From Patescibacteria group bacterium (lineage in GTDB: Bacteria; Patescibacteriota; Minisyncoccia; Minisyncoccales; CAZWNE01): a stretch of DNA of 42,512 bases. Numbering within the stretch: the first letter of the stretch is position 1; every line of letters begins with the position of its first letter. A model generated the notes under the pieces. That model did no database searches. It was not told where the DNA came from and saw only the letters and a list, made by a program, of their open reading frames with translations. The position numbers were made by a program, and so were the translations under genes. The DNA lies in NCBI GenBank assembly GCA_038078735.1, contig JBBTTI010000040.1:1-42512 (forward strand). The letters are read 5' to 3'. This document shows, piece after piece, positions 25,948 to 42,512 of the stretch.

Positions 25948-26355
25948 CTATATTAACCGCTGTTTTGCAGTCGCTAGCTGGTCCCGAAGATTCTCAATTT
26001 GCCGGTTCCTTCTGGATATTTTCTCCAAAGCTGCTTCATACTTTTCAGTGAGCCATTTTGGACTACATATCCAAAGGCCGTCTTCTATTTCCACCTCGAA
26101 GTCATCGGGAGAATTTTCCATACTCTCTTTATATGGAACCACGAGACTCTTCTTTATTTTCCCCCATTCTCCTCTTGCTCCATTGATACATACCACCGAT
26201 CTATCATCAAGGCGGAAACTGTCAATACCGGGACCATGAGTGGGAAATCCACAGATATCATCCTTGCCTTGGGGCAGAACGGGAAGAGGATAAACGATCT
26301 CAGGAATCCCTCTTCCGGAATCGTTCCAGTAATACCTTGCCATGTAAATATTCAC
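25948..26355 (-). CDS. Hypothetical protein
   Basis: 135-aa ORF downstream of a TTGACA-17-TATTCT promoter embedded in the murL 3' end, with its own terminator. Confidence 0.55.
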   Translation of the reverse strand: MNIYMARYYWNDSGRGIPEIVYPLPVLPQGKDDICGFPTHGPGIDSFRLDDRSVVCINGARGEWGKIKKSLVVPYKESMENSPDDFEVEIEDGLWICSPKWLTEKYEAALEKISRRNRQIENLRDQLATAKQRLI

Positions 26356-26411
26356 TTTTTTGTCCTTTTGCCACCAAACAGAGAAAACCCAACTATTTTA
26401 AGAATAGCATG

Positions 26412-27632: not shown

Positions 27633-27638
27633 AATTTA

Positions 27639-28718
27639 TTAGCCGAGCAACTTAATCGCGACACCTAATACGGCTAAGACTACGCCGATGATCCAAAAAC
27701 GCATCGTTATTTGTTCGGGACGCCAACCTTTAGCTTCAAAATGATGATGAATTGGCGTTGATAGCCAGATTTTTTTATGCCGGAATTTTTTAGATAATAA
27801 TTGGATAATTACTGAACCTGTTTCCAGTATCAGCACTCCTCCGATAATCGGCAGAACTGCCACGGAATCGGTTAAAAAAGCGACAACAGCCATGGTTGAT
27901 GTCAGCCCTAAAATGCCGGTTTCCGTCATATAAAATTTAGCCGGCGGGATGTTAAACCACAAAAAAGAAAATAAAGCGCCTAAAATTGCGGCGCAAAAAA
28001 TAGCTAAATCAATTTTACCTTGAGAAAAAGCAATAATTGAAAAAGCGGCAAAAATTGAAGCAAAGACCCCGCCGGAAAGCCCATCTAAGCCATCAACTAC
28101 GCCCGATGACCAAGATGCCACCATTATCAGAACAAAAAGAGGAATCATTAAAATACCGATTGATAAATCAATGCCTTCGGGGAAATTAAATAACAAGGGA
28201 ATATGCACGCTATCCCAGCCAAGTTGAAAATAAAACCAAAAACCGCCGATAAGGCCGATTGAAATAACAATCATCAGCCGGCGTAAAAAGCCGATGCCGC
28301 CGCCGATATATTTTCCCTTTCCATAGACAGTGAAAATATCGTCGATTAATCCGACGATAGATGCCACTACTAAAGTGAATAAAGGCAGCCACGTTTCGGG
28401 GCGAGTAAGAAAATTCAAATTACTAAACCACCAAGGTTGAGCCAGTTTTGACAAAATTAAAAATATAAAAATAACGGATAATACCGATAACCAAATCACT
28501 AATCCCCCGCCGCGAGGCACCGAAACCTCTCTTTCTTTGTGCAGAGAATAAAAAACAGTGGCTTCTTCGCCGGTGATCGTTTTTCCCCTGGCAATTTTTT
28601 TCCAAAATTTAATTTTATATAAAAATTTAACTAAAAATCTGCCTAAAAAGAAAGCAACGCCGGCCGTCAAGGCCGAAATCAGCAATAAACGAATAATATT
28701 AAAAGTAAAGATTGACAT
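27639..28718 (-). CDS. mraY: Phospho-N-acetylmuramoyl-pentapeptide transferase
   Basis: P.GGG, G.IDD, DGLDGL, FLWFN..PA..YM and TPIHHHFE..GW. Confidence 0.94.
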   Translation of the reverse strand: MSIFTFNIIRLLLISALTAGVAFFLGRFLVKFLYKIKFWKKIARGKTITGEEATVFYSLHKEREVSVPRGGGLVIWLSVLSVIFIFLILSKLAQPWWFSNLNFLTRPETWLPLFTLVVASIVGLIDDIFTVYGKGKYIGGGIGFLRRLMIVISIGLIGGFWFYFQLGWDSVHIPLLFNFPEGIDLSIGILMIPLFVLIMVASWSSGVVDGLDGLSGGVFASIFAAFSIIAFSQGKIDLAIFCAAILGALFSFLWFNIPPAKFYMTETGILGLTSTMAVVAFLTDSVAVLPIIGGVLILETGSVIIQLLSKKFRHKKIWLSTPIHHHFEAKGWRPEQITMRFWIIGVVLAVLGVAIKLLG

Positions 28719-29601
28719 AATTTATCAACTTTTGAGCCTCTTGGATTCTGGCTTCCGCCGAAGGGGCGCCTAAAATTATATTTATAATTATATTTCCTTT
28801 TTCGTCAGAAAAAAGAAATATCAGACAGCCGCCGGCTTCATCAGTATAACCGGTCTTCCCGCCCAACATAGCTTGACTATCGGCTAAGATCAGGTCAGAA
28901 ACTCCATTTTTTATGAGATACATTTTTTTTCTTGAAGTGATCTCAAAAATCAATGGATGATTTTTGAGAATATATTTAGTTAAAACAGCTAAATTTTCAG
29001 CTGTGGAATAATTAAAATTATTTTGGGCGTCTTCAAGGCCGGTAGAATTAAGAAAGTTAGTTTGAGTTAGCCCCAATTCATGGGCTTTTAAATTCATTTT
29101 ATCTACAAAATTATTAACGCCCGTCAATTCAGACAAAGAATAAGCGGCATCGTTACTGGAATAAGAAAGCATTAATTCCAATAGTTTTTCAACCGTCAAC
29201 CTCTCCCCTGCTTTCAAATTACCATAATCAGGAACATTTTCCTGCTCCGCCGCCGATTTAGAGGTGATAATCAGCCGTTTCAAATCATAATTTACATCTT
29301 CTAAAACAATTATAGCTGTCATTAATTTTGTCAAAGAAGCCAAGGGCATAATCTCTGAAGTATTTTTCCTGAATAAAATTTTTTCTCTGCCATTCGGATT
29401 AATTTTAATCGAAATTGCGGAATTTACTTCAAGCCTTAGCGGCGGTTTCTGTGGAATTTTTATTTCTACAATTTGTCCGAAGGGCTCGGAAATTTGAGCA
29501 TAAAAAAAATTCTCCAGAGTATTTTGGGAAAAATTCACGCCTTGCCAAAAGGCCAAACTTAAAATAAATGTTATCAGAAAAAACTTAATATTTTTGGTCA
29601 T
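28699..29601 (-). CDS. D-alanyl-D-alanine carboxypeptidase (S11, DacA-like)
   Basis: ASLTKLMT (SxxK), SSND (SxN), F.N.TGL and GKTGYT..AG.C. Confidence 0.9.
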   Translation of the reverse strand: MTKNIKFFLITFILSLAFWQGVNFSQNTLENFFYAQISEPFGQIVEIKIPQKPPLRLEVNSAISIKINPNGREKILFRKNTSEIMPLASLTKLMTAIIVLEDVNYDLKRLIITSKSAAEQENVPDYGNLKAGERLTVEKLLELMLSYSSNDAAYSLSELTGVNNFVDKMNLKAHELGLTQTNFLNSTGLEDAQNNFNYSTAENLAVLTKYILKNHPLIFEITSRKKMYLIKNGVSDLILADSQAMLGGKTGYTDEAGGCLIFLFSDEKGNIIINIILGAPSAEARIQEAQKLINYVNLYF

Positions 29602-30917
29602 CTCTTTATTTTCTTTTTCGGCTGCAAAAGCGACAATCTTTGATCAACTCTTTCCATATCTCTTGGGAATAAGCTGGCTTCCCGTACATTTTCCAATCCA
29701 AGAATTTGTTTTACAATTCTTTCTGCTCCAAAAGCAAACCCACCCTCCGGCGGCATTCCATATTTAAACGTTTGCAAATAAAATTCAAAATCTTCCGGCT
29801 TGTTCCCCCATTTTTTAATATTGGATACCAATTTTCCGTAATCATTAATTCTCTGACCTCCTGTTGTTATTTCTAGTCCGCGGCACAAAAGGTCAAAACT
29901 CAAAGTGTAATCTTCGTCTGCTGGATCGGTAAAGGTGTAAAAAGGCCGTTTTTTAGTCGGATAATGAGTTATAAAAATCAACTCAGAACCGTATTTTTCT
30001 TTAGCAAAATTACATATCTCTTTTTCATCTTCCGGCTCTAGATCTATCTCTTTTCTGTTGTCGCGTTTCGTTCTTTCAAAAATAATTTGTTGAGCTTCTC
30101 TCATTTTTATCCTTGGTATTTTATCGCTAATTTGCGGAATGCTGGTTTTAAATTTTATTTGCAGGTCGGAAAAAATATTTTTAATAATTATTTCGCAAGT
30201 ATCCATTAAATCTTCCCATGAATTGATAAAACCCATTTCTGCGTCTAAACTGATGTATTCAGAAAGATGACGAGTGGTCATACTGGGTTCAGCCCTAAAA
30301 ATATTCGTAACAGTGAATACCTTTTCAAAAGCGCCGACTAAAATTTGTTTATATAGTTGCGGGCTTTGAGCCAAGTAAGCGTTATAATCATAATAATTGA
30401 TATGAAAGACCTCCGCTCCCCCTTCGGCGTTGGTTGGCGTAATAATGGGTGATTGAAATTCGTAAAATCCTAAATCTTCCAGCGTTTTTCTAAAACTTCT
30501 TATTATCTGTTCTTTAATTTTAAAAATATCGTTGATTTTTTCATTCCTCAAGGTTAAAGGCCGATAATCTAAAAGCGTCGGCAATGTTACCTTTAAATCT
30601 CTTAAGTCAAAGGGCAATGTTTCAGCTTTGGCTAAAATTTTTATATTCTCGGCGCTTAATTCCACTTTGCCGGTTTCAATTTCCGGATTTATCATTTTAG
30701 CCGGCCTTTCTTGGACAACCCCCTCAATTTCCAATACCCACTCTTCATTTATCTCTTTAACCAAATCCGGAACGCAAACAATTTGCAAAATTCCCGTTCT
30801 GTCCCGCAAATCCAAAAAAACTATTTTGCCGTGATCCCTTCGGGAATTCACCCAACCCGAAACCTTAACTTTTTGGCCGATATATTTAATTGTCTCACTA
30901 ATTAAAATCCTCTCCAT
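29598..30917 (-). CDS. aspS: Aspartate--tRNA ligase, short archaeal-type (likely non-discriminating)
   Basis: OB fold GWV..RRDHG..F.DLRD, AQSPQLYKQ, FRAE, EITTGGQR and YGMPP.GG...G.ER. 439 aa, without the bacterial GAD insertion. Confidence 0.88.
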   Translation of the reverse strand: MERILISETIKYIGQKVKVSGWVNSRRDHGKIVFLDLRDRTGILQIVCVPDLVKEINEEWVLEIEGVVQERPAKMINPEIETGKVELSAENIKILAKAETLPFDLRDLKVTLPTLLDYRPLTLRNEKINDIFKIKEQIIRSFRKTLEDLGFYEFQSPIITPTNAEGGAEVFHINYYDYNAYLAQSPQLYKQILVGAFEKVFTVTNIFRAEPSMTTRHLSEYISLDAEMGFINSWEDLMDTCEIIIKNIFSDLQIKFKTSIPQISDKIPRIKMREAQQIIFERTKRDNRKEIDLEPEDEKEICNFAKEKYGSELIFITHYPTKKRPFYTFTDPADEDYTLSFDLLCRGLEITTGGQRINDYGKLVSNIKKWGNKPEDFEFYLQTFKYGMPPEGGFAFGAERIVKQILGLENVREASLFPRDMERVDQRLSLLQPKKKIKR

Positions 30918-30926
30918 ATATATCTT

Positions 30927-32537
30927 TTACCTTACTGGCAATTTAATATAAAATACACTCCCCTTCCCCCTACCTTTGCTTTCTGCCCAGATTTTACCAT
31001 TATGCATTTCAATAAATTTTTTAGCAATATAAAGACCTAAACCTGCGCCTTCGGCTGAAAGTTTACGGCCAGCCGACCCCCGGGTGAAGCTTCTAAATAC
31101 TTTAGATATTTCTTCTCTTGTCATCCCTTCGCCGGTATCAGACACGGCAATTTCTAATTTCAAATTTTCCCTGCCTGCCGGCAAGGCAGGAATTTCCAAT
31201 TTTATAGTTATTCCGCCATTACTGGTGTATTTTATAGCATTATCAATTAAATTCAATATCACTTGTCTCATCTTGTCTCCATCAATTAAAATTTTAGGCA
31301 AGGCGGTTTTTGGTTTTTCAAATTTCAAATAAAGGCCCTTTTCTTTAACAATATTTTTCAGTTCATCAACCACGCTGGCAATTATATCTTCAACCGAAAT
31401 ATTTTCCATTTTAATTTCCATCCTTCCCGCTTCAATCCGGGAAATGCTCAATAAATCATTTACCAGTTTTATTAATCTTTCATTGGAAAGACCCATATTT
31501 GTAACTGCTTTGATAATACTTTCAGGAATTTCTCCGTAGGTCTTATCTAAAATCATTGAAATGTAGCCCTTAATCGCCGTTAACGGCGCTCTTAACTGGT
31601 GCGAAGCAATAGAAATAAACTCCGACTTGGCATTATCTAATTTTTTTAATTCAGCGTAAGCCCCTTTTAGTTCATCAGTTAGTTCCTCCATTTCCTGCCG
31701 CCTTCTTATCTCATTTATCACACTTTTAATCAGCAGGTAGCCGAAAATAATAAAAGCGAATAAAAGCGACCCTTTCCAAATATATTCAAACGACGATTGA
31801 GAGGTAAAAATATTAATAAAGAGCAGAATTATTATAATTCCAACGAGCAATTCCGTAAGAACAATTTTTATGTTAAATAATTTTTTTCTAACGATAGCAT
31901 AGGCAATCATTCCTATATATATCGCCACAGACCAATTACCGGCTGGTGGGACAGGAATGTTATACCACAAAAAATAATTTGTTGAACCGCCCAGAAAAGC
32001 AATAAAAGTTCCCCAAAAGACATAGAGAATCTGGTCTTTGAGTATGCCGGTTGCTTTTTTGGAAGCAGAAAGAAGCAAATACCAACTATAAAACGTATAT
32101 AAGAAAAATATTAAAAGGAATATATGAAAAACAATACCCGGTTCCGGCCAAAAAGGAAAAAAAAGTTTTGGAGAAGTACTCTTGATAAAATACGGTGTAA
32201 AAAAATTAAAAAAAAGGAAAATAAACGCAGAAATATAACCGAACCAAAGAAACGATTTTATCTTTTTAGTTAAATCTAATAATGAAGCTATAAAATGGAA
32301 ATAAAAAATTGGCACAAAAACTGCTCCGGCCATAAGCATCCGGAGCCAAAAAAGAGCAGCATTTTGTTCAGGTGCTAAATGCCAAAAAAAATATCCGGTA
32401 CTCCAAAAAGCAACGCTGAACGCGAATAACCCAAAGTATTTGTTGGTATTAGATCTGCGATTCTGAAAATATACAAAAGTTCCAAGAATAATACTTGTTA
32501 CGGTATTGACAATAGAAGAAATTAAATAAAATAACAT
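30927..32537 (-). CDS. Sensor histidine kinase with multi-TM (HisKA_7TM-like) N-terminus
   Basis: Hydrophobic N-terminal half, ASHQLRAPL (H-box), NLIDNAIKY, DTG.G and G.GLGL. Confidence 0.93.
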   Translation of the reverse strand: MLFYLISSIVNTVTSIILGTFVYFQNRRSNTNKYFGLFAFSVAFWSTGYFFWHLAPEQNAALFWLRMLMAGAVFVPIFYFHFIASLLDLTKKIKSFLWFGYISAFIFLFFNFFTPYFIKSTSPKLFFPFWPEPGIVFHIFLLIFFLYTFYSWYLLLSASKKATGILKDQILYVFWGTFIAFLGGSTNYFLWYNIPVPPAGNWSVAIYIGMIAYAIVRKKLFNIKIVLTELLVGIIIILLFINIFTSQSSFEYIWKGSLLFAFIIFGYLLIKSVINEIRRRQEMEELTDELKGAYAELKKLDNAKSEFISIASHQLRAPLTAIKGYISMILDKTYGEIPESIIKAVTNMGLSNERLIKLVNDLLSISRIEAGRMEIKMENISVEDIIASVVDELKNIVKEKGLYLKFEKPKTALPKILIDGDKMRQVILNLIDNAIKYTSNGGITIKLEIPALPAGRENLKLEIAVSDTGEGMTREEISKVFRSFTRGSAGRKLSAEGAGLGLYIAKKFIEMHNGKIWAESKGRGKGSVFYIKLPVR

Positions 32538-32573
32538 AAAAATAAATAAAAAGCCTCAACAAAGATTAGTATA

Positions 32574-33536
32574 TTATACCATCTCGGTTGAGGCCTTACA
32601 ACTTGTGGCTAAAGCTATGTGAAAGATAGAATGAGGTTCTGAAATTATCCGACAGTCTTCAAACCCCCCAGCACGAACGAGACCTTCTAAGTGTTTAGGT
32701 CTTCTGTGCTTCATTCTCCAATCAATTACGTGGTATAGAAACCAACGCTCAGGGTTGTTGCCGATACTGTTAGTTAAAAAAATCCCTCCTGGCCGAAGGA
32801 CAGAATACACGGATTCTATAAGTCTTACGGCCGTTCTGTCGGAAACATATTCCAGAAATCCAACCATTTCCACGGCATCAAAAGGCAAGTGGCCGTTAAG
32901 GGTTTTTTTGAGACGGAATAAATCTCTTATATTTCCCTGAATAGTGGTGACCTGTTCCTCTACTCCGTACTTTTGCGCTAATTCTTTGCTGTGAATTAAT
33001 GCTTCCTGATTATTATCAACAAGTACTGCCCGGACTTTTATACCCCTTTCTTTAAGAAAGGCAAGGGTTTCTATTATGCCTTGAGCTGATCCGCTTGCTA
33101 ATGAAAGAATGCTACCTCCCTGCCCACAAGTATTAAATTTTTGCGCTAAAAGGTACTTGATAAGAAGCAATCTGTTTCGGACAGCTTGGGCATTCATCAT
33201 ACCTATCCAGAAATCGCTAACCCACCCTTCAATGCCTTGAATACTTCCAAAATGATGATTATAAACAACATCAAGTCCCTTCCAGTTAGTTGCCTCATCT
33301 TTAATTTTCCGGCACGATCGGCTGGCGCCGTCAAATAAATATGTATTAGTCTTCAACTTTCGGCCAAATAATCCCAGCAACATTTTTTTTGCTACTACCC
33401 AAATAATAAGTAGCCACATTACTGGAAGGCTAAGGAGATACGGCCATTTTATTTTTTCATATGTAGGCTCGGGAATTTCTAAAACCAAAGGAGGATTTAT
33501 TTCTCCAGTGGTCTCTCGTCTTAATGTGTCAACCAT
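32574..33536 (-). CDS. Class I SAM-dependent methyltransferase
   Basis: ILSLASGSA, LVD, FD.V..VG..EY and VLRPGG. AGGAGG RBS. Confidence 0.85.
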   Translation of the reverse strand: MVDTLRRETTGEINPPLVLEIPEPTYEKIKWPYLLSLPVMWLLIIWVVAKKMLLGLFGRKLKTNTYLFDGASRSCRKIKDEATNWKGLDVVYNHHFGSIQGIEGWVSDFWIGMMNAQAVRNRLLLIKYLLAQKFNTCGQGGSILSLASGSAQGIIETLAFLKERGIKVRAVLVDNNQEALIHSKELAQKYGVEEQVTTIQGNIRDLFRLKKTLNGHLPFDAVEMVGFLEYVSDRTAVRLIESVYSVLRPGGIFLTNSIGNNPERWFLYHVIDWRMKHRRPKHLEGLVRAGGFEDCRIISEPHSIFHIALATSCKASTEMV

Positions 33537-33643
33537 TGTATAATCCTCCTTTCTATTCAGTATTTTTGGGGTATTCAGTTTAAGCCGGAAAAATTCCGGT
33601 GACTAATTTAAGTATTCCAAAAAATAAACAATCTGTCAAATAA

Positions 33644-33684
33644 TAGTGTGCGACACTGTAGTGTGCGACACTGAGTGTCGCACA
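33644..33684. repeat. Tandem 15-mer plus palindrome
   Basis: TAGTGTGCGACACTG twice, and TGTGCGACACT-G-AGTGTCGCACA (33662-33684). Confidence 0.75.
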
Positions 33685-33839
33685 TCTCACATATGCCCTC
33701 AGATTACCTAGAAAAGTGCAATATGTCTGTATACATTACCTCGAGTACTTGACAAGGGGCTTTAGTGGTGGCAGAGTTAAAACAGATTAGAATCACAATT
33801 AAATATAGGAATAGAAAAAATTCTAAAAAGGAGGACTAA

Positions 33840-34805
33840 ATGGACAATAGAATACATCCACTAGTGACCGTCTATGGTATGGAAAATAACAATGGGGTGG
33901 AGTTCCTGTTTCCTGGGCGCACCGTCACGATTGAAGGCGGGAAAGAAACGCTTCTTTTCCTTCTCCGACAGTGCACCGGGTATCGCACCGCAGAAGAGAT
34001 TGCGTCTGCGGTCTGTGAACAGACCGGACACAACAAGGAAGAAGTATGGGAAGTAATGGAAGAGTTACTGGCGCGCCATATTTTGGTGGACGCCAATCGC
34101 TACTATCTCCTTTTTCATATGGCTTCAGAAAACCCTATGCCTTTCTTGAGGGAGCTTTCCGAGGAAGACACAACAAGGATGTTGAGGGAAGGAGAAAGTC
34201 CTTTGGTTCCGTTTCCCTCTTCACGCTACACTGCCCTAGAACAACTACTTGAAAAACGCGAATCGGTTCGGCAGTTCAGTGGCGAGCCACTTTCGTTCGA
34301 CGAACTTAGCCGTCTTGCATGGGCCGTGTATGGAAGGATAAAAAGAAGCGAAAAATTCCCAGAGAGTTCCATAGGACTTGGTACTGTTCCTTCCGGTGGA
34401 GCAATGTATCCGCTCCGACTTTTCGTCTTAGATAGGAAAGGTCCCTCAGGCTGGATGGTTTATATTGGATATCCTAAGGGACTTCAAGTAAGGAGCCTTG
34501 TTTCAAAACAACAAGCTATTCATGCCCTTGGGGAAGATTCTATTCTGGAAGGTGCGGCGGCGGTGTACATACTTACCTGCGATTTCCAGCGGATAATCCA
34601 GAAATATGGGAATCGAGGGTACCGTTTCGCTCTGCTCGAAGCAGGGCACGCCGCCCAAAACGCATATCTTTGGTGTGCAGAACAAAATCTTGGAGTGGTG
34701 GAAGTAGGGGGTTTTTTAGACGAGGAACTCGCCAACCTTCTTTTGCTTTCCTACCCAAGGCAGGCTCCGCTTACTGCACTTATAATCGGAAGGAGGAAAT
34801 CGTAG
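33840..34805 (+). CDS. SagB/ThcOx-family FMN-dependent azoline dehydrogenase with N-terminal RRE-like domain
   Basis: RESVRQF, PSGGAMYP, KYG.RGYRFALLEAGH.AQN and GGF.D. N-terminal LL..CTG.RT.EEI...L......L winged-helix pattern. Confidence 0.9.
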   Translation: MDNRIHPLVTVYGMENNNGVEFLFPGRTVTIEGGKETLLFLLRQCTGYRTAEEIASAVCEQTGHNKEEVWEVMEELLARHILVDANRYYLLFHMASENPMPFLRELSEEDTTRMLREGESPLVPFPSSRYTALEQLLEKRESVRQFSGEPLSFDELSRLAWAVYGRIKRSEKFPESSIGLGTVPSGGAMYPLRLFVLDRKGPSGWMVYIGYPKGLQVRSLVSKQQAIHALGEDSILEGAAAVYILTCDFQRIIQKYGNRGYRFALLEAGHAAQNAYLWCAEQNLGVVEVGGFLDEELANLLLLSYPRQAPLTALIIGRRKS

Positions 34806-36322
34806 TGAGAATACAACTCAACGAAAACTGGAGGGTGAGGCCGACACAAGACGGTCTTGAATTAATGGCTCCAGAACATAATATTACACTAGAGTTGTCT
34901 GATCTTGTATTTCGGGATGAGATAGAGGCTGTTCTTGTTGGAAATGCAGAAATTCCCGTGGATAACAAGGTTATAGAAGAAACTCTACAGCTATTGAAGA
35001 ACATAGGAGCGATCTCTGCACAAGAGGGGTTTACTCGCCAAAACCCATCATCAACCAAAAGAGAAGAAGCGGCATGGAGAATTCGAAGGGATTTTGTGGG
35101 ACCACGCGGCCCAATTATGAGCGTGTACTGGCTTAATCCTAGCCAGTCCAAACTATCTCTCTCTCGGACTCACTTATTCACGGCAAAATACCGTGAGAGG
35201 ACAGGACATGGCGAAGAGATGCGGGAAGCATGGGCTTCAGGCAGTGACGCTGATTGGGGACAAGCCGAGTTTAAGGCAATTATGGAGGCATTGGAGCGCC
35301 ACGCATGCGGAATTATCCCACAAGAACAACTCGTAAGGAGCACTGCTCGTAAGCTTAAAAATCAAGCTCTCGATCCTCGGAGGATAGTAGTTTATACAAA
35401 AGCACAGTATAAGAATAATCTACCTTTCGTCCCGTTTTCCAAAGATCGGGAATACTGGTGGAAATCAGTAAAGGTATCACCAGAAGGCTATGAAAAGTAT
35501 GTGCCCATAGAATGTCTTTACTACCCTGCAGGGCACGAACTCTCACATAACCTTTATACTGCAGCGAACTCATCTGGGGTGGCGGCAGGACTGACTTTTG
35601 AAGATGCACTTCTGAGGGGAATCTATGAAGCAATTGAACGGGACGCATTCATGATTACATGGTTAATTCGCGCAAGCATGCCACTTATCGACCAACGGAC
35701 AATTTCAGAAGAATGTCGGGAGCGGGTGTATTCCCTAGAGTCACTCGGATACCGTATGTACTTTGTGGATATTACTCTTGAACTCGCCCCCGTAGTGCTC
35801 GCAGTCGGAGTGAGCGAGAAAGTGAGGCCATCCTTGGTCATCGGTGCCGCTTCGAATCCTGATATAGAAAAGGCTGTTGAAAAATCCCTGAGCGAAGTCG
35901 AGCACCAACTCTACTGGGAATGGAGGGACCCAGAAAACATACATAGCATTTCCGACCCAACAGAGGTAAACAAGATCCCTGATCACACAGCCCTCTATGC
36001 CTCTTCCGAGCACCTCTCAAAAGCTGTGTTCCTCTGGGGTGGAGAGACACGGCCCATGAACAAGTCAAACTTCGGCATCCAAGATACGTCGGCGGTCATG
36101 GAGAAACTCAAACAACACGGGTTCCAAACCGCGGTACTCGACCTTACCCCGGAATACCTGAAAAAGACAGGGGTGTATGTAGTACGAGTCATTCCTCTCG
36201 GGCTTATTCCCATTTCGTTTGGATATGGGATGGAACCGCTAGGGATGGCACGGTATACGCAAATGGCTAAACGGGGCAATCCTTGGCCAGGACCAGTACC
36301 TTTTCCACATCCATTCTCATAG
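34805..36322 (+). CDS. YcaO-family cyclodehydratase (azoline-forming type)
   Basis: EALER, NSSGVAAG, EAIERDA and a Pro-rich C-terminus PWPGPVPFPHPFS. GTG 34805 overlaps the upstream TAG and follows AGGAGG. Confidence 0.92.
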   Translation: MRIQLNENWRVRPTQDGLELMAPEHNITLELSDLVFRDEIEAVLVGNAEIPVDNKVIEETLQLLKNIGAISAQEGFTRQNPSSTKREEAAWRIRRDFVGPRGPIMSVYWLNPSQSKLSLSRTHLFTAKYRERTGHGEEMREAWASGSDADWGQAEFKAIMEALERHACGIIPQEQLVRSTARKLKNQALDPRRIVVYTKAQYKNNLPFVPFSKDREYWWKSVKVSPEGYEKYVPIECLYYPAGHELSHNLYTAANSSGVAAGLTFEDALLRGIYEAIERDAFMITWLIRASMPLIDQRTISEECRERVYSLESLGYRMYFVDITLELAPVVLAVGVSEKVRPSLVIGAASNPDIEKAVEKSLSEVEHQLYWEWRDPENIHSISDPTEVNKIPDHTALYASSEHLSKAVFLWGGETRPMNKSNFGIQDTSAVMEKLKQHGFQTAVLDLTPEYLKKTGVYVVRVIPLGLIPISFGYGMEPLGMARYTQMAKRGNPWPGPVPFPHPFS

Positions 36323-36346
36323 TACTTCGTTAGGGCCACCTTTTTC

Positions 36347-36375
36347 TTGACAATTTCACCTGAATTTACTACGAT
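36347..36375 (+). promoter_or_regulatory. Sigma70-like promoter of candidate precursor
   Basis: TTGACA-17 nt-TACGAT. Confidence 0.7.
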
Positions 36376-36406
36376 AAAAATATCTTGAAAGAAAGGAGGT
36401 GATAAT

Positions 36407-36508
36407 ATGTCTGGATTGAAGATCGTTATTACGGAGCGTAGGCTAACGGACGAGCTGACCAAAGGCGATCACCGTGACTGCGCAGGTGGCAGTCATTGCA
36501 ACAGATAA
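36407..36508 (+). CDS. Candidate RiPP precursor peptide MSGLKIVITERRLTDELTKGDHRDCAGGSHCNR (33 aa)
   Basis: AAGGAGGTGA RBS 4 nt before ATG, promoter upstream and terminator downstream. Cys/Ser-containing C-terminus; directly follows ycaO. Confidence 0.8.
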   Translation: MSGLKIVITERRLTDELTKGDHRDCAGGSHCNR

Positions 36509-36540
36509 CAAAAAAGAGTTGCAAATATGACGTCGCCAAA

Positions 36541-36577
36541 GGGACTGAGTGGCACAAAGCTATTCAGTCCCCTTTTT
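36541..36577 (+). terminator. Rho-independent terminator after precursor
   Basis: GGGACTGAGTGGC/GCTATTCAGTCCC stem (two G-U pairs) followed by CTTTTT. Confidence 0.7.
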
Positions 36578-36680
36578 ATATCTTCGCAAGATTTAACAAA
36601 GACTATATCAGTAGATATGCTATTCTTGATTATGTAGACCCAGCTCTTTAGTAAATAAATAATCTCCGAGGAGGGTAGTA

Positions 36681-37493
36681 GTGAAAACCATAAGAGGAAA
36701 GTTTAACACGGTTCAATTCATTGATGCACAATCCGTCCAAAAAGTTGCTATTGATCAAAAAGTTGCTCTCCCATCGCGTCTGAAGATAGAAGCTTGGGCA
36801 CTTTCTTTTGCCAAGAAGAACAGAATTAATGTTCCTCGCGTGCTGAAGTATTATCTTAATTCGCTGGGCCAAGAAGTATTGGTCACAGAAAGAATCAATG
36901 GAGAAACTCTGTCACCCAAAGAATGTCAAAAACATCCTCAATATTTGGAAGATATAGGAAACCAGATGGCTCTTCTGGGGCAAGTTTCGTCGGGCTATGG
37001 ATGGATTGATCCTGTAACTGGCTTTGGATGTCATAAAACTTGGCCATCATTTTTAGAGTGTCTCGTTTGGGAATATGGGAGTGAACTTGTCCACCTACAT
37101 TTGATTGAGGATAAACTCTTAGTTCGCATACAAGATGCGATCAAAAAGACGAATTTATTTTGTCAGCCACCGTTCCTTCTCCACCGTGATCTTAGACCCG
37201 CCAACTTTTTAAGGGATCGCGAAGGAAAGATTTGGATTATTGATTGGGAACGCGCTATCCTAGGAGATCCACTCTACGACATCGCAATGGTAGGGGTTCG
37301 GCATGGTCATGGTATCTTCTGGGAGGGTCTACGAAAGGGGTACAATCTCAGCATTTCTCCTTGGGTGTACACTCTTTATGAAGTTATAGTTCTTCTAGGA
37401 ACTGCTGACTTTTACCGTCAAGTTAGTCCCAAGTATCAAAATGAACTCAAAATCACGCTCAAAGAGTTACACCAATTAGTACAAAACATATAG
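36681..37493 (+). CDS. Aminoglycoside phosphotransferase/choline kinase-family protein
   Basis: VPRV, LLHRDLRPANF, IIDWE and GDPLYD. GAGG-type RBS before GTG. Confidence 0.88.
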   Translation: MKTIRGKFNTVQFIDAQSVQKVAIDQKVALPSRLKIEAWALSFAKKNRINVPRVLKYYLNSLGQEVLVTERINGETLSPKECQKHPQYLEDIGNQMALLGQVSSGYGWIDPVTGFGCHKTWPSFLECLVWEYGSELVHLHLIEDKLLVRIQDAIKKTNLFCQPPFLLHRDLRPANFLRDREGKIWIIDWERAILGDPLYDIAMVGVRHGHGIFWEGLRKGYNLSISPWVYTLYEVIVLLGTADFYRQVSPKYQNELKITLKELHQLVQNI

Positions 37494-37498
37494 CAAGG

Positions 37499-38809
37499 CT
37501 AAGTAAAACCCTTAGCCTTTTTTCTTAGATCTTTATAAAAAAGATATGTGCCATTTAAAATAACTCCTTTAATAGAACGAATATTAGAAATATTTTTAAG
37601 CGGGTTCTTTCTTAAAAGCACAAGATTTGCAATTTTTCCTTCTTCAATTGTCCCAAAATCTAAAAGAGCATCAAGAGATAGCGCTGCATTGTATGTCGCT
37701 GCCTCCAATGCTTGATATGACTTTAATCCGGAATCAACAAGAAGCTCTAATTCCTCTAAAAGCGACACACCCGGAATCACAAATGGATTAGGGGTGTCAG
37801 ATCCCGCAAGAATATTACTATGCTTTTGTAGAAAAGGAAGAATATGCCGAGTCCTTTCACAATAAAGGCAAAAATTTTCCCACCAGAGAGGAGGACGACC
37901 TTTAATATTGGCTGAACTCTTGGGGTGATTTGGATTCCACTTGATTTCTCTGTAATATTTAGGAAGAAGTCGAGCTTCTTTGCTCTGTTTAAGTTTAGAA
38001 TAATCTGCCAGTTGGGACATTTTTTTATCTACAACAAGAGTAGGACATAAGAATACATTATTTCGTTCCAAGAGCGAACCCAGCTTCTCCAATTTTCTTT
38101 TATCTATTTTTACATCAACGAATTTCCTCCATCCCGGGTAATTTTTTAGGTTAGCGTTTACAGAAACGATCTTACTGATATAATTGCGCATACTACTCAT
38201 ATGCTCAAATCCGCCCTGACCCATTTTTATAGCTTTCATAATACTGATTGATTTTGGGAGATGTCCGGTTACTTTCAAGCCACGCTTACAAGCTTCCTTA
38301 AGAATCGCCTCATACACTTCTGGTTTGAGGGTTTGATATACCTTAATAAAATCTACTCCTTGCCGCTTCAGTTCGCTTACGGCAATCCTGCCTTCTTTTT
38401 TATTTCGCACTATCCGGAATCCTTTCCAAAATGGAGGATCTCCTTCCAATATCGGCCCGCATATATACATTCGAGGGCCAAGTACCTTCCCAGAATTTAC
38501 TTTATCCCTCAAGGAAAATATTTCTTTCTTGTAACTTCCTGTTTCTCTAATAGCTGTAATACCATATCGAAGAAAAAGAGAGAGCCATGTTTGTGAATGC
38601 AAGTGCACATGCATATCAAAAAGTCCGGGAATAAGAAATTTCCCCTTTCCATTAATGATGCGTCCTGCGAATTTATCGGTTTCCTGTTTTCGAGAAGGAA
38701 AAATCCGTTTGATTCGCGCCCCTTCAATAACCATATTGTAGCCATGCAATACGCGAGAACCTGGCATGGGAATAATATTAACGTTTTTAATAAGGACAGA
38801 TGATACCAT
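37499..38809 (-). CDS. Metal-dependent amidohydrolase
   Basis: PGL.DMHVH, KVY, GH, EH, AGSD, GTIE.GK.A.LV.L..NPL. Confidence 0.9.
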   Translation of the reverse strand: MVSSVLIKNVNIIPMPGSRVLHGYNMVIEGARIKRIFPSRKQETDKFAGRIINGKGKFLIPGLFDMHVHLHSQTWLSLFLRYGITAIRETGSYKKEIFSLRDKVNSGKVLGPRMYICGPILEGDPPFWKGFRIVRNKKEGRIAVSELKRQGVDFIKVYQTLKPEVYEAILKEACKRGLKVTGHLPKSISIMKAIKMGQGGFEHMSSMRNYISKIVSVNANLKNYPGWRKFVDVKIDKRKLEKLGSLLERNNVFLCPTLVVDKKMSQLADYSKLKQSKEARLLPKYYREIKWNPNHPKSSANIKGRPPLWWENFCLYCERTRHILPFLQKHSNILAGSDTPNPFVIPGVSLLEELELLVDSGLKSYQALEAATYNAALSLDALLDFGTIEEGKIANLVLLRKNPLKNISNIRSIKGVILNGTYLFYKDLRKKAKGFT

Positions 38810-39057
38810 ACAGCTTATTTTAACTCCTATTCCAATTTTAATCCATCACCTAAATTGTGCGAAGCTAAAATTGTGCGAAGCTAAGCTTACCATAAATTTT
38901 ACGACAAAAATTAATATTTTATTTTCTAAATTAATCTTAATAAATATCTTTGTTTTTTAAAGAAAAGGCGATGAAACTCTGTTTCATCTTCACCCTTCGC
39001 TTATCAAGCGCCAGCGAAGATTAAGAAGAGATTTATCTCTTCGCTTCGCTCGGGTAC

Positions 39058-39086
39058 TTGACAAGATGCTTTGCTGGCAGTATATT
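39058..39086 (+). promoter_or_regulatory. Sigma70-like promoter
   Basis: TTGACA-17 nt-TATATT. Confidence 0.65.
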
Positions 39087-39151
39087 TAAGGTGGAACATT
39101 TCTAGTTTAATACAGAATGTTACGAATAAAAATTTCTGAAAAGGAGGAAAA

Positions 39152-39826
39152 ATGACTACGAAAACAACAGAAAAGAAAGTAGCGGAAGTTGTAAAAAACC
39201 AAACAGTGATCCAAACCGAAGTGCCTGAAGTTTTTGAGCAAGGGATGAAGAAAAAAACAAAAGGATGGATGCTCATCGGCATCGGTATCGGCATACTGGT
39301 TATGGCCCTCGTTGGTCTTGGCTTTTGGATGGGTCAGAAAAATAACAGCCCGACAATTTCCAAGCAAGAACAAGCCATTGTCGCTAATGTCCAATCGGAC
39401 ACGCCACTCACCTCTAATCAGCAAGCCTATCTCCAAAAATCGCTAGAGGAAGGGCAAAAATCGCTGAACCAACAGAATGGTTCGTCTGTGCCAGTAAATG
39501 CACCTGTAGTTGTACCGCCCTCTGTGCGGTCCGACTTCAAGCCCGAGTATAAAGAAACTCCTGAAGCAAAAGGAAAAATCCTATTTAAATTTACGACTGA
39601 CGCAAAGGCGATCAACTACACGGTAAAAAACACAAGCGATAAGTCACTTTTTGTTTGGGACAGAGGAGAACAAAAAGACGCCTCGGGCAAGATTCTTGAT
39701 CGTCGGGGTGGCGAAGAACCCTCTTGGTTTTTGCTCAAACCGGGAGAAAGTATTAACGATTCTAGGTGGCAGATAGATCCAGAAGCTAAAAAATTAGCTA
39801 TGTGGGTAGAAGTGAAAGCCCAATAA
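39152..39826 (+). CDS. Single-pass membrane hypothetical protein
   Basis: AAGGAGG RBS, TM helix WMLIGIGIGILVMALVGLGFW, own promoter and terminator. Confidence 0.8.
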   Translation: MTTKTTEKKVAEVVKNQTVIQTEVPEVFEQGMKKKTKGWMLIGIGIGILVMALVGLGFWMGQKNNSPTISKQEQAIVANVQSDTPLTSNQQAYLQKSLEEGQKSLNQQNGSSVPVNAPVVVPPSVRSDFKPEYKETPEAKGKILFKFTTDAKAINYTVKNTSDKSLFVWDRGEQKDASGKILDRRGGEEPSWFLLKPGESINDSRWQIDPEAKKLAMWVEVKAQ

Positions 39827-39840
39827 TGGCAAACAAAAAA

Positions 39841-39871
39841 CGACCTCACTTTTCTTGTAAAAGTGAGGTCG
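39841..39871. terminator. Bidirectional terminator
   Basis: CGACCTCACTTTT/AAAAGTGAGGTCG stem between convergent genes, with A- and T-tracts either side. Confidence 0.75.
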
Positions 39872-39874
39872 GTT

Positions 39875-41218
39875 TTATTTTTGCGCTGGAATAACTTTTA
39901 AAGAAGAAATACCTTCTTTGCCAACAGGATGATCAACCCCTAAATTAAACTGGTCCGCTGATATAACTTCGCAGTTATGTTGGAAATTTTTATTTTGGAA
40001 AATAAGGGCCAAGTAATTGCCATCAATTTTAAGAGATAAAACCTTATCTTCAATAAATTGCCCGTCACCGTAACGATTGTCGCCCGAGCCTAAGTCTGGA
40101 TAGCTACCCACGGGGAAAGGTTTAAAAATTTTTTTAGCGTCGGCGACATTTTCATTTACCATTTGCATTTCCGTATAATTCTCCAATTTGTATAAAATTA
40201 CACCGCCTTTGGCCGGGTCAGGAGGTTCGTTCGGCTGGACAAAGACGGTAATAGACGAAACACCGCCGTCTTTTATTTTGGGCAGAACCACATCTCTATC
40301 CGCCGTAAAAACATCACAAGATAAAGTGTAATTCGTTCCTTCATGCAAGATGGCGCCGAATTTCATACTTGAATAACCGCAAGTTTTATCAAACATCTGA
40401 CCGCTTTTTTTGTCGCATTCCTCTTCGGAAATATCTTCGTAAGCATAAGCGTTTTTAAATTTGATAGAAGTAATTTTATCTTCATAATCTCTTATAATAT
40501 TTGAAGGAAATTCGGAAAAAGACCGGCTGGTGAAAAAGCAGGAACCGTCGGCTTTGCACAGATAAACCCCGGGAAATTGATATTCTATTTTGATTGACTT
40601 GGGCGATGGAGACAGCTCGCAAGCCTTTTCAAAACAATCTTTGCCAACTAATTTTACATTAGAATCCACCCAGGCTTTGACAAAATTGGGGTCAGTGCTG
40701 AACTGGTAAAATTTGGCGCTGGGGAAATCACTTAAGCTTTGGCTAATAGTGATAGTTTTTTGGTTCTCGGCAATATTGAATTTAGAGTCAGTTGGCAACA
40801 TTGTATAAAGAATAATCCCCTGATTCCCTCCTTTAATTTCCGGATTAATCAGCGCCAACTGGGGATTAATCGTGGTTAAAAACAAATAAGAGCCCAAAAG
40901 GATAATCAGGCCGATAAAAGCGTCGGTTATTTTTGTTTTTGCCTCGGACATAGCCGAAGGGTTTTGGGCTTCGGTTACCAATCTGAAGCCGGAATAAAAA
41001 ATCACGCTAAAAACAACCATACTGGAAATGGCAATGGCAAAGTTAAAACCATACTTTATATAGTCCGGCAAAAGCGTTTGGGTAGTTTTTGGCGGAGCTA
41101 AACTGCCAATTTGGGGATAGGTTATTTCCAATTCCCGAGCAACGACAAAATTATCTGTTAATACAAATAGAACAAAAAAGAGAAAAAAGATTAAAAAAAG
41201 TTTTTTAAGAATAGACAT
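39875..41218 (-). CDS. Pilin-like (TrbC/VirB2-type) membrane protein with C-terminal beta/gamma-crystallin-like repeats
   Basis: Y..GF......NP.....AK..I..A.IG..ILLGSY..L.TINPQL module, then repeated xLy...NY/F...C...ISS(I/L)KV Greek-key-like motifs. Confidence 0.65.
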   Translation of the reverse strand: MSILKKLFLIFFLFFVLFVLTDNFVVARELEITYPQIGSLAPPKTTQTLLPDYIKYGFNFAIAISSMVVFSVIFYSGFRLVTEAQNPSAMSEAKTKITDAFIGLIILLGSYLFLTTINPQLALINPEIKGGNQGIILYTMLPTDSKFNIAENQKTITISQSLSDFPSAKFYQFSTDPNFVKAWVDSNVKLVGKDCFEKACELSPSPKSIKIEYQFPGVYLCKADGSCFFTSRSFSEFPSNIIRDYEDKITSIKFKNAYAYEDISEEECDKKSGQMFDKTCGYSSMKFGAILHEGTNYTLSCDVFTADRDVVLPKIKDGGVSSITVFVQPNEPPDPAKGGVILYKLENYTEMQMVNENVADAKKIFKPFPVGSYPDLGSGDNRYGDGQFIEDKVLSLKIDGNYLALIFQNKNFQHNCEVISADQFNLGVDHPVGKEGISSLKVIPAQK

Positions 41219-41224
41219 TTTTAT

Positions 41225-41563
41225 TTAAACGCCCGAACAAAAAAGATTGACAAAGAAACTAAGCTTAATCCAAGAAAAAACAAAGAGGCCGGCAATCAAA
41301 AGAGAAAGCATCACTCTCGCGATAGCTAAATTTCTAAGAGTTTTATTTATTTCGATATCTTTCCTTTTCCAAATGAAAAGACCGCTACTGGCGGGAAGAG
41401 AAATCAAAATAGAAATAAATAAAAGCAAGAAATAAAAAGGAATATTAAAGAAACAACTTAACGAGATAATAAATTTGTTAACAACGAATAAAAGGAGGCC
41501 AGCCAAAATTGCGGCTAGTGAAAATATAATACCAAATATAACTCGCCTTCTAAGGGATTCCAT
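41225..41563 (-). CDS. Small multi-pass membrane protein
   Basis: 112 aa with three hydrophobic segments. Confidence 0.6.
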   Translation of the reverse strand: MESLRRRVIFGIIFSLAAILAGLLLFVVNKFIISLSCFFNIPFYFLLLFISILISLPASSGLFIWKRKDIEINKTLRNLAIARVMLSLLIAGLFVFSWIKLSFFVNLFCSGV

Positions 41564-41638
41564 TATTTCATTTTAACTTATAGAATATCGCTGTCAACCT
41601 GTGAATAAGTCCCCTTACTCTTTAAGCTGCCGAATAAC

Positions 41639-41671
41639 AAAAAATACACAGGTTGAACCTGTGTATTTTTT
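41639..41671 (-). terminator. Rho-independent terminator
   Basis: AAAAAATACACAGGTT-G-AACCTGTGTATTTTTT hairpin. Confidence 0.7.
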
Positions 41672-41685
41672 CTGCGGAGTTAAAA

Positions 41686-41844
41686 CTACATTGCGGGTGT
41701 TGATGGAGGGGTTTGGGTCGGTGGCTGCTGAACTGGCGGTGGTGAAGGAGGGTTCATTATTGGCCCGCCTTTTTTCTTTTTCATTTTTAAAAAAAGAAAA
41801 ACACCTACTGCGGCGACGATGATTATTATATAAAGCAGAGTCAT
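41686..41844 (-). CDS. 52-aa single-TM, Pro-rich small protein (not in ORF track)
   Basis: MTLLYIIIIVAAVGVFLFLKMKKKKGGPIMNPPSPPPVQQPPTQTPPSTPAM*. Starts 10 nt after the murC stop and ends just before a terminator. Confidence 0.7.
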   Translation of the reverse strand: MTLLYIIIIVAAVGVFLFLKMKKKKGGPIMNPPSPPPVQQPPTQTPPSTPAM

Positions 41845-41854
41845 AAGATAATTT

Positions 41855-42512
41855 TTAATTTTTAATTTTAAAATCGGCCTTTGTCAAGTTATAGATATCT
41901 CCCGCTCCCATTATAATCAAAACTTGGCCTTTTTCCAAATTATTTTTAAGATAATCTAAGATACCGTCTTTAGGAATATAAATAACATTTTCCTTTTTAA
42001 TTGCTTTGACTAATTTTTCCGAACTTATTTTATTTTTAATTTCTTTTTCCTCTCGGCCGGCGACATCATAAATGTCAGTGATTATAAGTTTATCAACTAT
42101 TGGGCGTTTACCCTGAGCCTGCCGAAGGGCCTTTCGGAAAACCCTAACAAAGTCCTTAAATAAATAATACGTTCTTTGATATTGGTGGGGTTGATAAACG
42201 CACCAGATTTTCTTATTCGGATATTTTTCCCGAGCCGCTTTCATACCGGCCATAGCCTTGGTCGGGTTATGACCGTAGTCGGAAATAAGAATAAAGGGCT
42301 TGGTTTGGACTATTTCAAAGCGCCGCCAAGCGCCTTTGTATTCTGATAAAGCCTTAAAAGAAATTTTATCGGGAATCTTCAGGGCTCTAGCGCAAGTTAA
42401 AGCCGCTAAGGCATTATAGATATTGTGCTCCCCGGGAACCTTCAAGATCTTCATTAATTTTTTCGCTTCGGGTTGTTTTAGCGAATATGTTGAGGTCGAA
42501 CCTCCGCCAAAT
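41855..42512 (-). CDS. murC: UDP-N-acetylmuramate--L-alanine ligase, C-terminal part (5' end outside window)
   Basis: PGEHN..NA, G..RRFE, DYGH.P, QPHQY.RT and MGAGDI. Frame is open to the window end. Confidence 0.92.
   Translation of the reverse strand, partial: FGGGSTSTYSLKQPEAKKLMKILKVPGEHNIYNALAALTCARALKIPDKISFKALSEYKGAWRRFEIVQTKPFILISDYGHNPTKAMAGMKAAREKYPNKKIWCVYQPHQYQRTYYLFKDFVRVFRKALRQAQGKRPIVDKLIITDIYDVAGREEKEIKNKISSEKLVKAIKKENVIYIPKDGILDYLKNNLEKGQVLIIMGAGDIYNLTKADFKIKN

Follow-up and report, generated by a model that had tools for sequence, protein, structure and literature searches.

Organization of the cluster

The window analysed here, a stretch of 42,512 nucleotides from a Patescibacteria group bacterium (assembly GCA_038078735.1, contig JBBTTI010000040.1), carries a compact gene cluster that is likely to be a working biosynthetic locus for a peptide made by ribosomes and modified after translation (RiPP), of the linear azol(in)e-containing peptide (LAP) type. 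Five open reading frames (ORFs) make up the cluster and encode a SagB-type dehydrogenase dependent on flavin mononucleotide (FMN), a SagD-type YcaO cyclodehydratase, a 33-aa peptide, a kinase of the aminoglycoside phosphotransferase (APH) fold and an amidohydrolase-superfamily enzyme (Table 1). All five are intact and have strong Shine–Dalgarno sequences (SDs). The GTG start of the YcaO gene at 34805 has one base in common with the TAG stop of the SagB gene (34803-34805) and is preceded by AGGAGG, while AGGAGGTGA lies 5 bases 5′ of the ATG of the 33-aa ORF. The YcaO reference sequences were taken from 34802 and hence carry one extra residue. The source genome, 706 kb in 43 contigs and 99% complete, is of a size typical of the candidate phyla radiation (CPR, Patescibacteria), whose members have genomes of about 0.7 Mb and almost no secondary metabolism.

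A preliminary description of this DNA had given the same gene map, including the TAG/GTG overlap and a YcaO C-terminus of PFPHPFS, and had assigned the SagB, YcaO, APH-like kinase and amidohydrolase families; every gene lies where it was placed, and the family calls hold in Pfam and NCBIfam. It had also described the block as GC-richer than the backbone, with core genes running opposite to minus-strand surroundings, and both statements are borne out. The GC content of the SagB–YcaO block is 0.482, compared to a mean of 0.359 (standard deviation 0.03) and a maximum of 0.426 among 125 equal-sized segments of the window outside the island described below. All ORFs of at least 150 aa in 10183-33536 (one overlapping frame excepted), as well as the ORF from 41855 onward, lie on the minus strand.

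Table 1. Coordinates of the genes and sequence features discussed in the text
Feature	Position	Strand	Remarks
SagB-type FMN dehydrogenase	33840-34805	+	321 aa; from the ORF list and Pfam/NCBIfam
SagD-type YcaO cyclodehydratase	34805-36322	+	505 aa; extra N-terminal domain aa 1-84, YcaO fold aa 85-505, Pro-rich C-terminus
Precursor peptide gene	36407-36508	+	33 aa; conserved leader, short His/Cys core
APH-fold kinase	36681-37493	+	PF01636
Amidohydrolase-superfamily metallohydrolase, candidate precursor peptidase	37499-38809	-	Convergent; PF01979
Methyltransferase	32574-33536	-	Divergent from sagB
Precursor upstream element	36345-36399	+	Promoter-like TTGACA-17-TACGAT (36347-36375), then SD; also in L085
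Intrinsic-terminator-like hairpin	36541-36571	+	13-bp stem; 33 nt after precursor stop
Bidirectional terminator-like hairpin	37495-37519		Between kinase and amidohydrolase
sagB upstream region	33740-33839	+	TTGACA-containing 12-mer and strong SD; conserved in L084
Tandem 15-mer plus inverted copy	33644-33684		Two tandem copies (33644-33673); left-junction palindrome with 9-nt arms; operator-like or REP-like
Tandem 16-mer	38852-38883		Two copies, 43-74 nt upstream of amidohydrolase ATG; heptamer in common with the sagB-side repeat
Island (indel)	33640-41639		About 8.0 kb; RiPP cluster and second module; blastn against contig L164 of same-genus genome G001
Second island module	38950-41639		Contains the 224-aa, 447-aa and 112-aa proteins
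224-aa single-pass membrane protein	39152-39826	+	Second module
447-aa pilin-like protein	39875-41218	-	Second module; weak PF18895
112-aa membrane protein	41225-41563	-	Second module

The SagB–YcaO enzyme pair

The dehydrogenase matches PF00881 (3.6e-21), and its profile finds McbC (8.3e-18) as well as BmdC and ThcOx among solved structures. A Lys-Tyr motif is significant in SagB-type dehydrogenases, and the corresponding K255-Y256 is invariant in 19 sequences. The cyclodehydratase matches PF02624 (1.8e-55) and TIGR03604 (226.9 bits against a cut-off of 219.25), and its fold matches LynD, TruD and McbD. Azoline-forming YcaOs are marked by a Pro-rich C-terminus; in the PFPHPFS end of the present enzyme, H503 and P504 are invariant across 31 sequences, with P500, F501 and F505 nearly so. 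Every residue that is invariant in the 31 YcaOs and the 19 SagBs is kept in the window.

A search of 5.8 billion proteins returned 71 relatives of the YcaO, 47 of them at 39-100% identity; most of these 47 are full-length at about 505 aa and a few are cut short. Those with names bear CPR names (Yanofskybacteria, WWE3). A 207-kb contig labelled Gammaproteobacteria (L008) also holds a full family member, with a precursor and an adjacent gene resembling isoleucyl-tRNA synthetase; possible reasons are a mistaken label or bin, or a reach of the family beyond the CPR. The family is rare. YcaO genes were found in two of 40 relatives of the same order, both as distant matches, and 18 of 400 sampled genomes of the phylum have some YcaO. 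None of these 18 has the N-terminal domain of the family, because none matches the profile before position 83. The family set used below comprises 29 loci (L004-L009 and L084-L106, seven near-duplicates among them) drawn from collections of genomes and metagenomes. SagB lies directly upstream of YcaO in 28, and the remaining one is cut by a contig end. In a sub-clade of five loci (L089-L093), a conserved protein of 197-198 aa without a Pfam or NCBIfam match is encoded about 150 nt upstream of SagB. In distant CPR relatives (P0048, P0049 and P0054, also L002 on G013:C30), a nitroreductase and a YcaO form a single protein of 710-740 aa.

The YcaO might perform another chemistry, namely the formation of a thioamide or an amidine or an ATP-dependent cleavage of peptide bonds like that of MusD, but this is very improbable. 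Azolines are the predicted products because the pairing with a SagB-type dehydrogenase, found in one operon throughout nearly the whole family and in one polypeptide in P0048, P0049 and P0054, would otherwise be senseless. Furthermore, TIGR03604 is above its cut-off while the thioamidation model TIGR03266 reaches 76 of 365, no TfuA gene was seen among the island ORFs, and the Pro-rich C-terminus is kept.

The precursor peptide and its exchange as a cassette

In many loci, small SD-preceded ORFs just 3′ of YcaO have a common N-terminus. A leader profile was built from these ORFs by coordinates and searched in six frames over every collected locus. It matches 24 of the 29 family loci (E≤4.4e-4), which yields 17 distinct peptides. 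A weak match is present in L104 (E 0.58); the unmatched loci are L100, L102 and L106, which are cut within YcaO or 93 nt after it, and L103, in which downstream DNA is present. The family alignment has a constant leader, K-L-x-I-K-V-T-E-R-R-L-x-D-E, followed by a hypervariable core rich in Cys, Gly and Ser, which is the classic shape of an azole-peptide precursor. In a search of 1.84 billion representative proteins, the profile gave 21 matches, 19 of which are peptides of the same kind with 33-63 aa. None of the NCBIfam precursor models matched six family peptides, the top score being 15.7 bits against 35 for TIGR03601. Two loci have two precursor genes with different cores: L095 (5266-5448 and 1981-2181, minus strand) and L109 (642-821 and 881-1024).

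The only match of the leader profile in the six frames of the window is the 33-aa ORF. On these comparative grounds it is the precursor of the cluster, because its leader is conserved in 24 of the 29 related loci. The preliminary description had proposed this ORF as a candidate precursor and had looked to YcaO homologs for a similar downstream ORF, and both expectations are upheld by the same count. It is hardly credible that the small ORF is not a substrate and that the enzymes modify a peptide or protein encoded elsewhere: leader, position and strand are conserved together in those loci, Cys-rich hypervariable cores follow a constant leader, and the window has no second leader match. Two further ORFs of 36 and 51 aa (36496-36651) were considered as precursors and rejected, as they have neither a leader match nor a clear SD and contain the terminator-like hairpin.

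The core of the window peptide, DHRDCxxGSHCNR, is about 13 residues long; two of these are Cys, two are His and one is Ser. This short core is common to the window, L009 and P0121, the last of which came from the search of representative proteins, and the only differences among the three cores are in the pair of residues that follows the first Cys. Between the precursor genes of the window and L009, the sense codons show 11 synonymous and 9 non-synonymous differences; in the core codons there are 4 synonymous and 2 non-synonymous differences, the latter both conservative. This synonymous excess and the conservative nature of the core replacements make the short-core peptide look maintained rather than wrecked.

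Comparison of three loci indicates that the precursor travels as a cassette together with its upstream element and the finishing genes. First, L084 is 94.9% identical to the window at the DNA level over 33745-36399 (97% for the YcaO protein), and this homology ends at 36399, 8 nt before the precursor ATG; past the swap point, the genes found in L084 are those for a long Cys-rich precursor and for DUF2268. Second, L009, at 76.8% identity, is collinear with the window through YcaO, precursor, kinase and hydrolase. Third, the 55 nt of 36345-36399 also precede the precursor of L085, despite a different gene order there. The window holds a rare sub-type. A third kinase, P0074, with 81% identity, and a YcaO, P0005, with 77%, each stem from a 6,011-bp JGI contig, probably one and the same.

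The cluster could alternatively be a decaying or silent remnant, in which the short core marks a precursor that has been truncated and has ceased to be a substrate. The two Cys of the core, compared to 4-8 in most relatives, would fit this explanation, as would the interrupted YcaO of L009, the only other full short-core locus, where the gene (1-1276) is broken by a run of N and a frame-shifting 11-nt deletion. No RNA run is listed for 33700-38850, which speaks neither for nor against a silent locus. We consider a remnant very improbable. None of the five ORFs of the window is broken and all have strong SDs, no invariant residue of the two enzymes is lost, and the 33-aa length and the core are the same in three independent variants with a synonymous excess. 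Moreover, the break in L009 adjoins a scaffold gap in a co-assembled metagenome-assembled genome, and the precursor, kinase and hydrolase of that locus are intact; the break may be an assembly error, decay or the mark of a cassette that works without YcaO.

Kinase and amidohydrolase

The usual neighbour of the precursor in this family is a predicted zinc peptidase, DUF2268 (PF10026, 2.9e-30), which lies 3′ of the precursor in 10 of the 29 loci and beside more distant YcaOs in 31 of 169 loci. It is probably the "peptidase" of the CPR clusters already published. No DUF2268 was found in the present genome, and a literature search found no paper on DUF2268 together with YcaO. In four loci, namely the window, L004, L005 and L009, the amidohydrolase stands there instead, and the two never occur together; in L086, an alpha/beta-hydrolase peptidase occupies the position. 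Among the loci, the kinase is restricted to the window and L009. The preliminary description had proposed to test YcaO homologs for kinase and amidohydrolase neighbours, which recur as the amidohydrolase in these four loci and as the kinase in two. The same description saw no protease or transporter. Domain scans of the island ORFs likewise found no classical protease or transporter domain and no E1/ThiF gene, but the amidohydrolase sits at the position of the DUF2268 peptidase and is related to PurAH, so that the absence of a protease is doubtful.

The amidohydrolase matches PF01979 (76.3 bits, cut-off 25) and has an HxH stretch near residue 66. Among solved structures it matches prolidase-like and carboxypeptidase-like amidohydrolases, and its sole near-full-length match is 6i5s, the bottromycin enzyme PurAH (residues 58-429, E 7.6e-17). 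The kinase matches PF01636 (67.9 bits, cut-off 23.2). It has weak sub-threshold matches to protein-kinase-type families, and it does not reach the cut-offs of the LxmK model NF038156 (20 bits against 315) or the Cph model NF041268 (16.7 against 390). Among the 400 sampled phylum genomes, the hydrolase and the kinase have 1 and 2 weak matches, respectively; because both are nearly unfound there, it is unlikely that they recur beside this YcaO family by chance. From this gene neighbourhood, the amidohydrolase is a tentative candidate for the precursor peptidase, with the balance slightly against it, and an action of the kinase on the peptide is more doubtful still.

An opposing explanation limits the RiPP unit to SagB, YcaO and the precursor, with the kinase and the amidohydrolase as passengers from small-molecule metabolism or resistance and a generic protease removing the leader. 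The best solved relatives of the kinase are hygromycin B and choline kinases; the family of the hydrolase includes prolidases, arginine carboxypeptidases and xenobiotic hydrolases, and its gene is convergent with its own terminator. In addition, GC content drops from 0.48 in SagB–YcaO to 0.42 and 0.38. Yet both genes recur beside the YcaO family although the 400 sampled phylum genomes nearly lack them, hydrolase and DUF2268 are mutually exclusive, and the swap point coincides with the start of the precursor, which implies that precursor type and accessory genes move together. A heptamer repeat is also common to the upstream regions of sagB and the hydrolase gene. Passenger status is therefore judged unlikely, though less so than the other alternatives considered here.

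Candidate domains for leader recognition

Azoline-forming YcaOs normally require a leader-binding E1-like or Ocin-ThiF-like protein. The preliminary description saw no such partner, and the absence extends from the island to the whole 99%-complete genome, in which neither PF00899 nor TIGR03603 has a match; divergent partners could escape these models. Among the family loci, only L091 and L092 have a ThiF gene nearby. In L091 (8984-11340) and L092, genes for a ThiF-family adenylyltransferase (PF00899, 3.2e-27) and for a PaaK-like ligase come after the precursor, a pair that may be another finishing cassette.

No E1-like domain is present in the YcaO itself, which has only about 84 aa before its YcaO fold. 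The nearest relatives of its YcaO domain by sequence are TruD, MusD and LynD, cyanobactin enzymes with a fused E1, and for this reason the family looks like a cyanobactin-type enzyme minus its E1-like part. SagB also has an N-terminal domain, winged-helix-like and covering aa 7-84. AlphaFold2 models of the full SagB and YcaO proteins (pLDDT 86.8 and 78.7) place four strands, three helices and one strand ahead of the nitroreductase fold of SagB, and for the YcaO model the Foldseek match at rank 46 is 8t19_A, the RiPP recognition element (RRE) of PbtF (E 0.045, TMt 0.57, 83 columns). PqqD matches below threshold occur in 6 of 18 SagB N-termini. The PDB list for the SagB N-terminal domain is led by MecI/BlaI winged-helix repressors (E 0.5); the YcaO N-terminal domain gave no Pfam or PDB sequence signal, and the Protein Atlas gave nothing usable for it or for the 224-aa protein of the second module. 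A complex prediction with both N-terminal domains and the precursor scored 0.07 against a mark of 0.32, which speaks neither for nor against binding. Overall, the models and sequences are suggestive only, in that the winged-helix-like N-terminal domains of about 80 aa on both enzymes are RRE candidates. The RRE-Finder paper (PMC7470986) describes RREs that are fused to dehydrogenases in cyanobactin, LAP and thiopeptide clusters and judges them possibly vestigial.

Genomic island and regulatory signals

The cluster is part of an island that is an indel relative to a genome of the same genus. By blastn, contig L164 of that genome (G001) matches the window over 26422-33639 at 87% and over 41640-41943 at 98%, with nothing between these two stretches in L164. 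In G002 and G009, the region from the histidine kinase gene to the MurC-like gene likewise lacks the island. The cluster was apparently acquired horizontally, and the indel and its GC richness accord with the acquired block proposed in the preliminary description. The unit that it had boxed is a real RiPP cluster; its extent needs revision, as it is part of a larger 8.0-kb indel with an unrelated, paralogous surface-protein module. A single 13,223-bp contig of DNA run X1, a possible source, spans 32553-38987 with zero differences and bridges the left island junction and the swap point. Cover from run X7, which bears no source mark, extends over 36365-38987; run X8 contains a diverged SagB–YcaO pair and has no cover over 36472-37133, a gap from which nothing follows. 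In the listed pieces of the contigs of four DNA runs, no bridging by 31 letters was found at the right junction (41639/41640).

The host region (21577-33536 and 41855-42511) consists of cell-wall and division genes, in the order MurG, FtsW, Mur ligase, MraY-type transferase, D-Ala-D-Ala carboxypeptidase and class II aminoacyl-tRNA synthetase, which continues with a histidine kinase with a seven-transmembrane (7TM) receptor, the methyltransferase, the island and the MurC-like gene. The methyltransferase, noted as divergent upstream in the preliminary description and considered as a tailoring enzyme, is rejected for the window and placed outside the RiPP unit because it is present beside the histidine kinase in the island-free G001 and is thus a backbone gene. 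A methyltransferase homologue follows the precursor in L093. The 7TM-receptor histidine kinase (30927-32537) lies within a few kb of the YcaO family in 9 of 30 loci (L005, L006, L085, L089-L091, L093, L094 and the window), and this neighbourhood may be a repeated landing site or inherited synteny. A role for it as a peptide sensor was rejected, since 40 of 41 relatives have the kinase and 3 of 41 have any YcaO.

The second module is probably a separate passenger outside the RiPP pathway. Its 224-aa/447-aa pair has a paralogous pair on contig C23 of the same genome (L181 1-1621), with a 98%-identical upstream element of 121 nt, and the module looks like one of a family of surface-protein cassettes with a common promoter region. 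Shorter copies of the 121-nt element occur on five further contigs. The upstream region of the 224-aa protein gene resembles that of sagB; the idea that this protein is a co-regulated immunity or export factor is weakened by its membership of the paralogous module, whose nearly identical upstream element is found elsewhere.

The heptamer TGTGCGA occurs five times in the window, three times in the left-junction repeat and twice upstream of the amidohydrolase gene, compared to 1.9 expected overall. By a rough estimate, the chance that two such repeats have a 7-mer in common is about 0.01, which hints at a common regulation of the sagB side and the hydrolase and no more. The palindrome at 33662-33684 has a 92% copy on contig C9 (55688-55712; L179 1500-1560), just 3′ of a gene for a 228-aa HUH (IS200/RAYT-like) transposase-like protein, assigned by eye, and beside a perfect hairpin; the left-junction repeat may be a repetitive extragenic palindromic (REP)-like element. 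The exact 12-mer upstream of sagB occurs twice in the genome.

Relation to known systems

The preliminary description had taken the cluster to be perhaps not yet described, in a lineage poor in secondary metabolism, which was an overstatement: Sharrar et al. (2020, mBio, PMC7298704) reported LAP clusters from the CPR. In the accessible part of that paper, a CPR LAP cluster has a YcaO, a nitroreductase, a peptidase and an 84-aa precursor, 110 more clusters occur in 93 CPR genomes, with the nitroreductase adjoining the YcaO in 89, and Ser/Cys azole formation and leader removal are predicted. CPR LAP clusters are thus already known at the genomic level. The window resembles them in its YcaO and nitroreductase-type dehydrogenase, adjacent precursor and ultra-small CPR genome, and differs in its APH kinase and amidohydrolase, which stand in place of the peptidase frequent among its relatives (DUF2268), and in a precursor of 33 instead of 84 aa. 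The same part of the paper names no leader family, partner problem, kinase or amidohydrolase. In the literature reached on YcaO, CPR, LAP and RRE topics, where published cluster lists were uncheckable, no account was found of the product, the leader family or the kinase/amidohydrolase variant. What is added here is the leader family, the absent partner and the N-terminal domains, the cassette swap, the short-core variant with a kinase and a PurAH-like hydrolase, and the borders of the island.

Compared to the cyanobactin enzymes LynD, TruD and PatD and to MusD, which have about 775-785 aa with an RRE and an E1-like domain before the YcaO fold, the window YcaO has only its short N-terminal extension. 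The predicted products are linear, and PatA/PatG proteases are not present. Microcin B17 synthetase offers another parallel, as McbD and McbC are structural matches of the window YcaO and SagB, and the Gly/Ser/Cys-rich cores usual in the family presumably resemble pro-MccB17. Unlike McbBCD, in which the E1-like McbB binds the leader, no such partner was found here, and unlike pro-MccB17, the window core is short and rich in His, Asp and Arg.

In the bottromycin pathway, stand-alone YcaOs act without an E1-like partner. PurAH and BotAH belong to that pathway, and the window has an amidohydrolase-superfamily enzyme as a candidate precursor peptidase. PurAH is said, by the title of its primary paper, to be thiazoline-specific. 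The similarity of the window hydrolase to PurAH is distant, a likeness at the level of the superfamily. According to a review (PMC10885120), PurAH is a dinuclear-zinc amidohydrolase that removes the follower peptide of bottromycin. Bottromycin has a follower without a leader, a macroamidine and no SagB dehydrogenase, whereas the window has a leader and SagB. The kinase is in the PF01636 fold family, as are LxmK of class V lanthipeptides and the capreomycin and viomycin phosphotransferases; unlike the LxmK cluster, the window has no HopA1-type lyase, and its kinase scores far below the LxmK and Cph cut-offs.

Proposed pathway and implications

Gene content, precursor conservation, the cassette swap, the indel and the absence of partner genes are directly supported, and a pathway can be proposed from them in which the chemistry, the binding role of the N-terminal domains and what the kinase and the hydrolase do are predictions. 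The 33-aa gene would be expressed from its own promoter and end at its own terminator, to judge from the signals seen around it. Its leader, KVTERRL...DE, would be bound by the winged-helix N-terminal domains of YcaO, SagB or both, which would stand in for the missing E1 or Ocin-ThiF partner. With ATP, YcaO would cyclodehydrate Cys25, Cys31 and possibly Ser29 to azolines, and the FMN dehydrogenase would oxidize these to azoles, as membership in the two families predicts. The cassette of short precursor, APH-fold kinase and amidohydrolase would replace the usual DUF2268 peptidase: the amidohydrolase may trim the modified peptide by cutting off its leader or else, like PurAH of the bottromycin pathway, a C-terminal tail behind a thiazol(in)e, and the kinase may phosphorylate Ser/Thr of the peptide for tailoring or self-protection. 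Judged from sequence, the locus very probably directs the conversion of the 33-aa peptide to an azol(in)e-modified product. That it is an acquired, working LAP-type cluster, in which the N-terminal domains would recognize the leader and the kinase and hydrolase would finish the product, is likely, with somewhat less confidence.

Several findings pull the other way. The SagB match to TIGR03605 is marginal (78.8 bits, 0.4 bits above the cut-off of 78.4). The core, with two Cys and one Ser, falls far below its relatives; heavy azole formation is impossible, and the modification may differ. The broken YcaO of L009 belongs on the same side. For leader recognition, the PqqD match of the SagB N-terminal domain (PF05402) stays below threshold (16.4 bits, cut-off 23.4), PDB profile searches with either N-terminal domain gave E>0.1 only and leave the RRE assignment weak, and hhalign aligns the two domains with each other at a probability of 7.8%. 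TIGR03693 had no match in the genome, which says little because its control also matched nowhere. As for the finishing genes, the kinase stands nearest to small-molecule kinases (hygromycin B kinase, 3.4e-8), and the PurAH likeness is that of a common superfamily branch, with a "possible prolidase" equalling its score over a short stretch. Finally, no transporter or immunity gene was identified.

A more far-reaching reading takes the locus as a minimal, partner-free azole synthetase with exchangeable precursor-plus-finishing cassettes, the cassette of the window, with its 13-residue His/Cys core, protein-kinase-like APH enzyme and PurAH-like hydrolase, making a new class of very small bis-thiazole peptide that is possibly phosphorylated or C-terminally trimmed. 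In this form the proposal is improbable, about as much so as passenger status for the accessory genes. If it were true, winged-helix domains of about 80 aa on YcaO and dehydrogenase would replace an E1-like scaffold of about 400 aa, the system would be among the smallest azole-installing systems known and handy for peptide engineering, and its peptide, made by an obligate episymbiont, might bind metal or serve as a signal instead of acting as a classical antibiotic.

The family offers concrete material to work on, with a defined leader, at least 17 natural cores and enzymes of 321 and 505 aa without an E1-like scaffold. The swap of cassettes in enzyme pairs that are 95% identical serves as a natural experiment in the diversification of RiPP pathways, and the roles of the amidohydrolase and the kinase as finishing enzymes are testable assignments. 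For the CPR, acquired biosynthetic islands such as this one hint at dealings with hosts or competitors.

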